A DNA stretch of 64,000 nucleotides. It comes from Limnothrix sp. BL-A-16 (GTDB lineage: Bacteria > Cyanobacteriota > Cyanobacteriia > CACIAM-69d). Below the pieces are notes generated by a model, which ran no database searches, was not told where the DNA came from, and worked only from the letters and a program-made list of their open reading frames with translations. Positions 53,754 to 55,639 of the stretch are shown in pieces (the stretch's first letter is position 1; the number at the start of each line of letters is the position of its first letter). The stretch spans positions 2,048,001 through 2,112,000 of the forward strand of contig CP166615.1 in the NCBI GenBank assembly GCA_041937175.2, written 5' to 3'. The translations under genes and the position numbers were made by a program.

Positions 53754-54440
53754 AGCAATCCAGAGTTTCCCTTGTCCACAAACTTCACCGCAAACTTCAC
53801 CGCAAGCAATCAAGACTGCAAGCAATCCGGGATTCGATCCGCTTAAAGTTGCCCAAAAATGACCCAACCTGTAAACGAAGCCGCCCGATCGCTCTCTGAT
53901 GGTTGCTCCCCCCCATCTGTCGCAATCCATTCCGGGATCCCAAATCGTAGCGTAGGGCCGGAAACCAACTAGAGCCAATCTTGATCAAAATTCTGGCCAA
54001 TTCTCATCCCCATTTCCATCTTGCCCCACCCAGCTAGCAACAACCCGATGGAGAATTTCACCGAAACCTCCACTGAGAAATAGAGCATTAGCGTGATTTT
54101 TCAATTCTGATTCCGGAAATGTGACGGTTAAAAATCCGGCAACAATCAATGGGTTTTCCTGGCACAAGTAACAAGAGATACATATCCCTTGAATATCCCC
54201 TGAAGCACCAAAGAATCTCTAAAATACGAAAAATTCAAGTTAAAACAGCATTTTTCCGCATCAGCAATCAAAAGCGCCTGATTACTCGATGAATCAAATC
54301 ATACCAAGCACAATCGTGGTCAGTGGCTATCAAGGGTGATGCACAGCGCGATCGAACAGAGCAGTTCGGCAGGACAATTCGACAGGGCAAAAAAATTTTT
54401 TAGAAAAGCTGGAACTTTTTCCCCTTTCAAGGCAACAATA

Positions 54441-54518
54441 TAGGCAAGAGTAGTGGAGAGATGTGTCACCGCTGCGGAGACCTGGCAGATTCGTCTGCCG
54501 GATCTCTGCATTTTTTTT
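54441..54518 (+). ncRNA. Candidate small RNA ending in a strong intrinsic terminator (5' end approximate)
   Basis: 17-nt arms 54473-54489 and 54494-54510, TTCG loop, T8 tail; no plus-strand CDS upstream. Confidence 0.45.
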
Positions 54519-54566
54519 GGGAATTTTTTGAGCCGCTACCCGCTCCCACTGTCGTTACGAAGTGAC

Positions 54567-54914
54567 CCAAAAGAAAAGGGTACAAGCCCCGTCCTTCTAG
54601 GGCGGCTTTGGTTGCTAGAATGAGAATGGTTGAAATCCCCACCTCATCTTGCAGCGATATACCAGCCGTTGGGCTGTGAAACCGGGACTCGGACAGCGAG
54701 AGGGAAAGAATCTGAGGGCAACGGAGAAGCCGACCCGAAGACACCCAATTTAGTCGCGGGCGGGCAGTCCGAGACTCAAAACGGACGTGGAGGGAGCGTC
54801 AGACTGGCTTGCCAGCAGCACCCTATGAAGCGTCAACCCGTGGTCTAGTCGAGCAACTTCGGTTGTTTGCCTAGGGCCGGAATCCCCGCTCCTTTAGGAC
54901 GGGGAGGATGTCAA
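54567..54914 (+). mobile_element. Non-autonomous IS200/IS605-family miniature element retaining an omega-RNA-like right end
   Basis: Related subterminal hairpins at 54584-54608 and 54883-54905; ends in GGATGTCAA; encodes a TnpB-tail-like peptide VAGGQSETQNGRGG; no tnpA or RuvC domain. Confidence 0.8.
54613..54621 (+). promoter_or_regulatory. Extended -10 promoter TGcTAGAAT inside the element left end
   Basis: TGn plus 5/6 match to TATAAT, 7 nt before the start of the self-complementary segment at 54629. Confidence 0.5.
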
Positions 54915-54932
54915 CGCATGAGGGTTTCAGCC

Positions 54933-55355
54933 ATGGAAAGTCGTCCGCCCCTGCCGCCGTTTACCCACGAAACCGCGATCGCCAAAGTGCAAGCCGCCGA
55001 AGATGCTTGGAACACCCGCGACCCGGAGCGCGTATCGCTGGCTTACACGGAAGATTCGGTTTGGCGCAATCGATCGGAATTTTTTTCAGGGCGGGACAAA
55101 ATTCGTGAGTTCCTGACCCGCAAGTGGAATCATGAGCTGGACTATCGGCTCAAGAAAGAACTCTGGAGCTTCACCGATCACCGCATCTCCGTGAAGTTCG
55201 AGTATGAGTACCACACGGATTCGGGGCAGTGGTATCGCGCCTATGGCAACGAGCAATGGGAATTCGCGCCCAATGGCCTAATGCAGCGCCGGGAAGCCAG
55301 CATTAATGATGTGCCGATCGCCGAGGTCGATCGCAAGTTCCGCTGGGAACGGTAG
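54933..55355 (+). CDS. DUF1348 / NTF2-like (SnoaL-like) protein
   Basis: RPPLPPFT...[24 protein letters not shown]...YGNEQWEF...REASIND. Confidence 0.9.
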
Positions 55356-55563: not shown

Positions 55564-55639
55564 TTGATCGATGGGCGATTCACCTCGATCGAGGGCGCAC
55601 ATTGGTGCGCCCGTACAAGCGATGACCCGGGTTTAGGGA

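Follow-up and report, generated by a model that had tools for sequence, protein, structure and literature searches.

A protein-free IS200/IS605 mini-element of Limnothrix sp. BL-A-16 with a putative omega-RNA module and a conserved 5' RNA domain

Cas12 guide RNAs descend from the omega RNAs of TnpB, which are under development as very small genome editors and which normally arise by processing of the tnpB mRNA. A 348-bp element of the cyanobacterium Limnothrix sp. BL-A-16, located in a stretch of 64,000 nt that was analysed as a whole (the window, C1:2048001-2112000 of the source genome, G000), raises the question of whether such a guide RNA may be carried as a gene of its own by a mobile element that encodes no protein, as a sequence-only reading of the window had proposed, or whether the element is what an internal deletion left of a tnpB transposon. 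We found it to be a non-autonomous IS200/IS605 element, most likely of the PATE type and descended from an IS1341-like ancestor with tnpB only. Its RNA probably consists of two halves, the 3' one corresponding to an omega RNA and the 5' one to a folded domain of this mini-element family.

Extent, ends and origin of the element

The element spans 54567-54914 of the window, and it can be divided, together with its flanks, into the following features.

54563-54566, + strand: TGAC transposon-adjacent motif (TAM), in the flank outside the element; the left flank of the empty site in genome G002 likewise terminates in TGAC.
54567-54612, + strand: left end with a subterminal hairpin (~54586-54606); 43 nt of it match the left end of an intact tnpB element at 95% identity.
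54613-54621, + strand: extended -10 TGCTAGAAT (hexamer 54616-54621) with a predicted start at 54628, based on column conservation and the starts of RNA contigs.
54628-54751, + strand: 5' RNA domain with several helices and a purine-rich single strand, based on covariation and apparently specific to the mini-element family.
54752-54914, + strand: 3' module, consisting of the tnpB tail and the right end, the putative omega-RNA scaffold; its identity is 87% with the 3' end of the intact tnpB element and 90% with a solo copy.
54853-54866 and 54883-54905, + strand: within the 3' module, the cUUCGg stem and the right-end hairpin with its UUUA loop (54893-54896), both covarying helices.
54915-54930, + strand: predicted 16-nt guide CGCATGAGGGTTTCAG, in the flank and overlapping the ribosome-binding site of the next gene.
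54933-55355, + strand: DUF1348 gene (PF07080, E 1.5e-65).

On the left side the order is ...GAAGTGAC / CCAAAAGAAAAGGGTACAAGCCCCGTCCTTCTAGGGCGGCTTT (the left end with its hairpin), GGTTGCTAGAATGAGAAT (TGn-TAGAAT) and GGTTGAAATCCCC... (~125 nt), and on the right side ...TAGTCGCGGGCGGGCAGTCCGAG ... GGAATCCCCGCTCCTTTAGGACGGGGAGGATGTCAA / CGCATGAGGGTTTCAGCC ATG. The proposed extent of 348 bp after TGAC was confirmed by G002, a genome of the same genus, in which the predicted empty site AAGTGAC/CGCAT... was found. The upstream flank (54100-54566) corresponds to 72211-72666 of its contig C85 and the downstream flank (54915-55351) to 71774-72210, both being contiguous across the junction 72210/72211, which reads ...GTTACGAAGTGAC/CGCATAAGGGTTCCAGCCATGG (the left part also given as ...GTCGTTACGAAGTGAC). 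Since the two flanks are directly joined in G002, both element ends are fixed to the base and there was no target-site duplication. Such insertion, following TGAC and with no duplicated target, is characteristic of IS200/IS605. In addition, a second 348-bp copy, 99% identical to the first, is located on contig C29 of G002 after TTGAC and between unrelated flanks, which suggested that the element is mobile.

The window copy was aligned with 20 whole or partial copies from ten other sources and from its own genome, giving 21 copies, of which 16 reach the right end. The flanks of copies with both ends are unrelated to each other, NTGAC (mostly TTGAC) lies directly 5' of all copies that retain the left end, and the right end in the 16 copies is ...GTCAA (one ...GCCAA), beyond which the sequences diverge. 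Sibling copies with the same body, the same NTGAC and differing flanks are in agreement with the mobile, protein-free IS200/IS605 derivative that had been proposed. The left (~54586-54606) and right (54883-54905) hairpins, described earlier as matching, have related arms, the shared arm CCCCGTCCT (54587-54595) being 100% complementary to 54896-54904; these imperfect subterminal hairpins at both ends, without terminal inverted repeats, are as expected of PATEs. No protein gene is present inside the element, which contains only short unconserved open reading frames (ORFs) and shows frame-shifting indels among its copies.

A comparison with its own genome by BLAST indicated where the two outer parts of the element came from. 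The left end (54567-54609) is 95% identical to C1:672069-672111 and 54752-54916 is 87% identical to C1:673226-673391, and these two stretches bound a 1.3-kb full-length element following ATGAC, which has TATAAT where the window element has TAGAAT. Its ORF (C1:672141-673349, 402 aa) is intact, with OrfB_IS605, Cas12f1-like TNB and HTH_OrfB_IS605 domains, and represents the cognate tnpB gene that had been expected in the genome. The 163-nt 3' module corresponds to the right end together with the tail of this tnpB, beginning at the codons for ...QVAGGQSETQNGRGG, and in the window copy only about the first 14 of these codons still translate like the TnpB tail in a by-eye comparison. In characterised TnpB systems the tnpB 3' end and the right end yield the omega RNA (PMC10097598), and the module is homologous to just these parts of a TnpB-encoding element; its 87% identity over 163 nt to the tail and right end of the intact element therefore argues that it is an omega-RNA module. 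The cUUCGg stem, predicted at ~54852-54867, is present at 54853-54866 and covaries (alignment pairs 356-358 with 366-368), and the right-end hairpin, whose UUUA tetraloop lies at -22 to -19 from the element end, is also supported by covariation. HgcC (RF00062) is an archaeal IS605-associated RNA, and its Rfam model aligned end to end with the 3' 138 nt, including the hairpin and the GGAGGAnGUCA tail, although its score, 20.1 bits, is below the gathering score of 50 and the module is therefore not a member by the Rfam criterion; the model does not reach the 5' domain.

Other relatives of the element were observed in the source genome and in related ones. G000 has four further tnpB genes, which are distant (30-34% identity), a 210-bp derivative (C1:3639786-3639989) in which the left end is fused straight to the 3' module after TTGAC without the 5' domain, and a solo 3' module (C1:3908963-3909126). 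The short joint of the 210-bp derivative, CTTGATCC, is partly complementary to the right-end terminus. In G002, a full-length tnpB element (L234, contig C35) has a 3' module 95% identical to that of the window, and its tnpB is a pseudogene, interrupted by an in-frame TAG and shortened by an internal deletion. Proteins closely related to the cognate TnpB are encoded in G067 (64%), G280 (57%) and G057 (58%), and only distantly related ones in G033, G043, G160 and G016.

Structure and distribution of the 5' RNA domain

The segment between the promoter and the 3' module had been considered structured RNA, and covariation analysis strongly supported this. For an alignment of 15 copies, RNAalifold predicted 24 pairs in seven helices, with 93.9% of the cells paired. 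Compensatory changes were found at 13 pairs, compared with 2-6 when the 3' partners were slid by 1-3 columns, and the covariation score was 0.451, compared with at most 0.103 after sliding, while 0 of 500 column shuffles reached the observed value; such slide and shuffle controls overstate significance for related sequences, and the signal is large and extends over five helices. For example, the hairpin CAGCC/GGCUG is replaced by ACUUU/GAAGU or ACACC/GGUGU, and the helix UCUU/GGGA by GUUU/GAAC. Many G-U pairs are conserved, including a U-G that is present at one pair in 13 of the 15 copies. Indels of 1-2 nt among the copies indicated that the segment has no conserved reading frame. With Rfam 15, nothing overlapping most of 54628-54751 was found at E<=10, the nearest match being the hairpin ribozyme at 54719-54766 (12.6 bits against 65, E 8.2).

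If the element were a plain, decaying remnant of an internal deletion, 54628-54751 would be functionless leader or coding sequence left over from a full-length element and should align with the ordinary leader of one. Other deletion products in the genome, namely the 210-bp element and the solo 3' module, make such an origin conceivable, and a global alignment of the window copy with the tnpB region that precedes the 3' module gave z=3, a score that 30 of 2000 shuffles also reached. The six other family members aligned to this region gave no significant result, however (z -0.42 to 1.95). Moreover, 54610-54751 has no similarity by BLAST to the full-length element of its own genome, this element was unmatched by an nhmmer profile or covariance model of 54628-54751, and the domain was not found by nhmmer or the covariance model described below within or before the tnpB of the full-length elements of G000, G001, G002, G067, G280 and G057. 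As had been claimed, the segment is thus neither tnpA nor tnpB, being part of neither the leader nor the coding sequence of any full-length element examined. Frame-shifting indels show that it is not coding, and multiple copies in G043 and G067 and compensatory changes across genomes of several families argue against a functionless sequence. The deletion-remnant explanation is largely refuted, and we consider it very improbable. Two apparent traces of tnpB were rejected: derivation of the domain from the zinc-finger or RuvC-III coding region, for which the alignment was not significant, and the resemblance of 'PTSSCS' to the TnpB motif 'PTSQRCSSC' with a shared 8-mer TCATCTTG at similar spacing, which is most likely due to chance.

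Copies of the 5' domain with the same architecture recur in G001, G033, G067, G280, G043, G160, G016 and G057, and G002 carries three, one of which lacks the left end and is the orthologue of C1:2848370-2848781 in G000. By BLAST, the domain was detected in nine of the 401 sampled genomes of the class, counting G000, and 89 of them gave a match to some portion of the complete element, in most cases the 3' module. A covariance model (R1) built from 15 copies and run on 151 sampled cyanobacterial genomes detected it in 12, again counting G000, and every match examined was a protein-less element. The additional matches of R1 were shorter, more divergent versions in G014 (four copies), G013, G123 and G062, which are also protein-less, with a hairpin at the left end, a box resembling a promoter and ...ATGTCAA at the right end. 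Among 35 loci, R1 matched two (L170 and L171), both protein-less mini-elements of the G013/G014 type, and none of the other 33, which were full-length or 3'-only elements. The domain was also present in records of the genome_contigs and metagenome collections, including one named Kastovskya adunca and one Limnothrix redekei. The element was found by BLAST in five of 119 genome_contigs stretches (L042, L052, L118, L132 and L139), and a longer degenerate pattern gave three matches in metagenomes, two of them from one genome already in the set, and none among viral contigs; a plasmid collection gave no match to the 5' domain and two partial ones to the 3' module only. The copy number is at least nine in G043, where the copies lie mostly at contig ends, and four in G067, the only one of 57 genomes of its family that has the domain. 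This patchy distribution is as expected of a horizontally moving element. By these comparisons, 54628-54751 is a conserved folded RNA domain that is restricted, so far as found, to the mini-element family.

Variations in architecture were observed among the copies. A divergent sibling, ~77% identical in the 5' domain, occupies the same site in G000 (C1:2848370-2848781, L014), in G002 (C26, L025) and in the Limnothrix redekei record (L052); it has lost the left-end hairpin and is immobile, and it is retained 129 nt upstream of a same-strand 361-aa ORF. In a metagenome copy (L196), the 5' domain is intact and most of the 3' module has been lost, the end points of the deletion apparently being the similar strings ACGGACGTGGAGG and GGACGGGGAGGATG. 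In the window copy, CGAAGTGACCCAA at the junction of flank and left end (54558-54570) resembles CGAAGACACCCAA at the end of the 5' domain (54736-54748), and in other copies an A-rich linker after ...GGCAC is loosely like the start of the left end; this may be chance or the trace of a nested origin.

Covariation alone cannot separate RNA from top-strand DNA, and IS200/IS605 elements move as top-strand single-stranded DNA whose hairpins are read by TnpA (PMC10055086), so the pairing within 54628-54751 might instead act in single-stranded DNA during peel-and-paste transposition by TnpA. TnpA is known from the same source to need only subterminal hairpins and short guide motifs, however, and minimal elements with just two hairpins exist in G043. 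Furthermore, the many conserved G-U pairs, the conserved promoter directly upstream, the RNA contigs that cover the domain and its persistence in copies without a left end all point to RNA, and a role in single-stranded DNA is very improbable in our view.

Pairing between the 5' and 3' ends of the RNA had also been proposed, and the complementarity is present. In a fold of 16 complete copies (alignment A2), RNAalifold closed the whole RNA by pairing nt 3-12 (UUGA.AU.CC) with the last 9 nt (GG.AU.UCAA), and a similar closing helix appeared in the single-sequence fold of the window copy. Considered alone, this terminal helix has eight pairs that are 95.3% paired over the 16 copies, with compensatory changes at three pairs in two lineages: A-U to G-C in G160, and U-A to C-G and C-G to U-A in the lineage of G000_b and G002_C26, which has three mismatches elsewhere in the helix. 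The covariation support is modest and the helix fails in some lineages. The G043 copies have a C at position 9 opposite A, right ends in that genome being ...GGAGGATGTCAA, so that the helix is mismatched; the copies of G123 and G062 have a different 5' end without visible complement; and the presumed transcripts of G013 and G014 contain the motif only ~50 nt from their start. The terminal helix is therefore plausible but not established. The 5' stretch GAAATCCCCACCTC resembles the 5' half of the right-end hairpin (GGAATCCCCGCTCC) and could, speculatively, compete with it.

The second pairing that had been suggested, between CTCGGAC (54688) and GTCCGAG (54767), did not hold. The complement is present in the window copy, but it rests on a private C at 54690, which is G in the 99% identical G002 copy and in two metatranscriptome contigs, it is not kept elsewhere, and each partner pairs locally in the consensus fold; we read it as chance. 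GACGU (54782-54786) was rejected as a pseudoknot partner of AUGUC, as it pairs instead with GCGUC (54829-54833) in a covarying helix. A conserved partner of the right-end terminus was sought in the tnpB coding region of seven right-end loci, with no consistent position found, three of the seven (L157, L162 and L173) being mini-elements on later inspection. The internal GTCAACCCGTG (54832-54842) repeats the right-end terminus and flank, GTCAACGCATG (54910-54920), and GAAGCGTCAACCC is nearly invariant across copies, part of it pairing with GACGU at 54782-54786.

Transcription, guide and possible role

The extended -10 that had been noticed inside the element (TGCTAGAAT) is conserved among the copies: a TAnnnT hexamer occupies the same columns in all 21 aligned copies, with TGn before it in 18 of them, and always lies 6 nt 5' of GGTTGAAAT. 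A sigma-70 scan of the element found no -35/-10 promoter, because there is no -35 and the promoter is an extended -10 only; the left-end hairpin with its CTTT was flagged as terminator-like in the same scan.

Metatranscriptomes from two studies contain RNA of this locus. In a freshwater data set (X2), a 287-nt contig covers 54645-54931 with two differences and a depth of 15.2, and in the other (X1) a 492-nt contig covers 54643-55134 with five differences, whereas the depth is 0 in both over 54300-54642, a silent upstream control. The contigs start 15-17 nt 3' of the predicted start, the X2 contig ends 17 nt past the right end, and the X2 contigs of the DUF1348 gene have a depth of 2.8 compared with 15.2 on the element. 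This pattern fits a start inside the element near 54628, an abundant species that extends to ~16-17 nt past the right end, and additional read-through. Two RNA runs searched as raw reads (X23 and X24) gave no reads on the stretch and are uninformative.

The element was inserted 18 nt upstream of the start codon of the DUF1348 gene (ATG at 54933), whose product of 140 aa is encoded by 54933-55352. The suggestion that the element promoter may also drive this gene gained support from the X1 contig, which passes from the element into the gene. On this basis, the element could instead be understood as a mobile promoter and leader cassette, in which the left hairpin stops incoming transcription, the element's own promoter drives DUF1348, and the 5' domain acts as a leader, regulator or stabiliser independently of TnpB. 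The terminator-like left hairpin and the distance of 18 nt to the ATG agree with this, as do the copies that have lost the left end and keep the promoter and RNA, one of which is common to G000, G002 and the Limnothrix redekei record; three of the five left-end-less lineages lie 19-129 nt upstream of a same-strand ORF. However, five of the 14 copies examined face an opposite-strand ORF that ends 16-241 nt downstream, with no same-strand ORF as near, the X2 depth falls from 15.2 on the element to 2.8 on the gene, and a complete omega-RNA scaffold with the right end is retained, which a promoter cassette would not need. We therefore regard the cassette as an unlikely explanation of the element as a whole.

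The predicted guide CGCATGAGGGTTTCAG follows ...GTCAA, where the copies diverge, and 14 of its 16 nt match the G002 empty site after TGAC. Its first 12 nt have their sole exact genome match at their own locus, and a search for second genomic targets of five guides gave no TAM-flanked perfect match. The favoured reading, an omega-RNA gene carried by a PATE-type element, can be outlined as follows. Transcription from the element's own extended -10 would produce an RNA of ~300 nt with two halves, the 3' half being a TnpB omega-RNA scaffold of the usual kind, to which the flank adds ~16 nt as the guide, and the 5' half the conserved folded domain of the mini-element family; the first 12 nt of the RNA may pair with the last 9 nt of the scaffold. 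The RNA would be loaded in trans by a TnpB such as the intact 402-aa copy (C1:672141-673349), and the complex would cut the empty TGAC-plus-guide site and thereby keep the element in place, according to the homing and retention scheme of Meers et al. The occupied locus would be protected, because there the guide is preceded by the right end and not by the TAM. Our preferred guess is that the 5' domain may help to stabilise, fold or load an RNA that no longer derives from a tnpB transcript, and read-through from the element promoter into the DUF1348 gene, as in the RNA contigs, would be a side effect.

Several observations, in addition to the lineages in which the terminal helix fails, weigh against this reading. 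The use of TnpB and TnpA in trans is something we infer from sequence data, and the one PF01797 (Y1_Tnp) match in G000 is a 265-aa ORF that does not lie beside similar ends, with no canonical small TnpA in the genome. In G160 and G016, a query with the TnpB of L003 gave no match at E<=1e-20, only distant genes with a TNB domain being present. Folded as a single sequence, the window copy shows no exceptional stability (z -0.91), and the RNA data are assembled contigs from environmental libraries, which cannot fix start, end, strand or level. The 5' region of the ISDra2 omega RNA is disordered and dispensable (PMC10097598), so the 5' domain need not matter for cleavage. Furthermore, five copy lineages without a left end, and hence immobile, still retain the promoter and RNA, which is not expected of a purely selfish homing role.

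A more far-reaching proposal is that the 5' domain evolved as the accessory module of a 'hyperparasitic' guide-RNA gene, that is, a protein-less element with its own promoter and a dedicated domain that lets its RNA survive and compete for the TnpB of other, even distantly related, insertion sequences. We put this forward as a tentative and rather doubtful possibility. If it is true, the domain might act, for example, by closing the scaffold with the 5'-3' helix or by imitating that half of the right-end hairpin to which it is similar, some left-end-less copies would have been retained as fixed RNA genes or as promoters that serve the host, and the family would represent a guide-RNA gene that occurs naturally on its own, is transcribed from its own promoter and has a domain absent from all TnpB-encoding elements.

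Relation to known systems and other observations

According to Meers et al. (2023, PMC10055086), omega RNAs are frequently encoded by PATEs and would have to rely on the TnpB of another element, so the core idea of a stand-alone omega-RNA mini-element is already in print and is not new. The present family shares with them the lack of a protein gene, the subterminal hairpins, motif-directed insertion without duplication, and a putative omega-RNA scaffold with a predicted flank-derived guide that would need a foreign TnpB; it differs by the additional ~125-nt covarying 5' RNA domain, of a kind not described in the accessible text of Meers et al., and by its own conserved extended -10 between the left end and the scaffold. 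Similarly, in ISDra2 (Nakagawa et al. 2023, PMC10097598) the scaffold is formed from the tnpB 3' end and the right end with the guide directly after it, a terminal hairpin with a UUUA loop (at -20 to -17) lies ~20 nt from the guide, and bases adjacent to the guide pair with a distant upstream strand. The partner strand of ISDra2 is located ~100 nt upstream in a core of 116 nt, whereas the candidate partner here is the extreme 5' end, ~280 nt upstream, and the intervening 5' half is conserved, structured and not tnpB coding. IStrons, which combine a group I intron with IS605/IS607 (10.1101/2023.11.20.567912, where a PATE with IStron ends is also mentioned), likewise have an extra structured RNA at the left and an omega RNA at the right end. 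Unlike them, the element here has no Rfam match to Intron_gpI or another intron, or to a ribozyme, and its domain comprises only ~125 nt; in addition, the promoter is internal, so the left end is untranscribed and cannot be a 5' splice site. Within the open-access literature (main texts) and Rfam 15, we found no description of a conserved 5' RNA domain with its own promoter in such elements, nor, in the same literature, a cyanobacterial stand-alone omega RNA, and the accessory 5' domain looks new.

The family is of interest as a probable example of a guide RNA uncoupled from the nuclease gene, with its own promoter, an extra folded domain under selection and a patchy spread among cyanobacteria. 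Should the 5' domain make the RNA more stable or its loading onto TnpB more efficient, it would offer a natural design for stand-alone omega-RNA expression, and the element would be a parasite of a parasite. The locus may also serve as a concrete case of such an element taking over the transcription of a host gene, one for which the element and its TAM, the empty site and an intact cognate TnpB have been identified.

Among the related sequences, G043 contains many units of ~76 nt (L209, L210, L216, L217, L225 and L226; also L223, L224 and L229) that consist only of the end of the 3' module and the right-end hairpin and lie right after (T/C)TGAC. One family of these units starts exactly at the internal ...GTCAA/CCCC of the full element, a mimic of the right-end terminus, and the units look like partial excision from the left cleavage site to this internal pseudo-right-end, although a second family starts after TGAA and misfits this idea. 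Downstream of the element in the window, a perfect 8-bp hairpin of G and C, GGGCGCACATTGGTGCGCCC, is located at 55593-55612. Its score against the Salmonella small RNA STnc320 is at chance level (23.5 bits against 50), and it lies ~30 nt past the 3' end (55640) of an opposite-strand ORF of 425 aa, for which it is probably the terminator.

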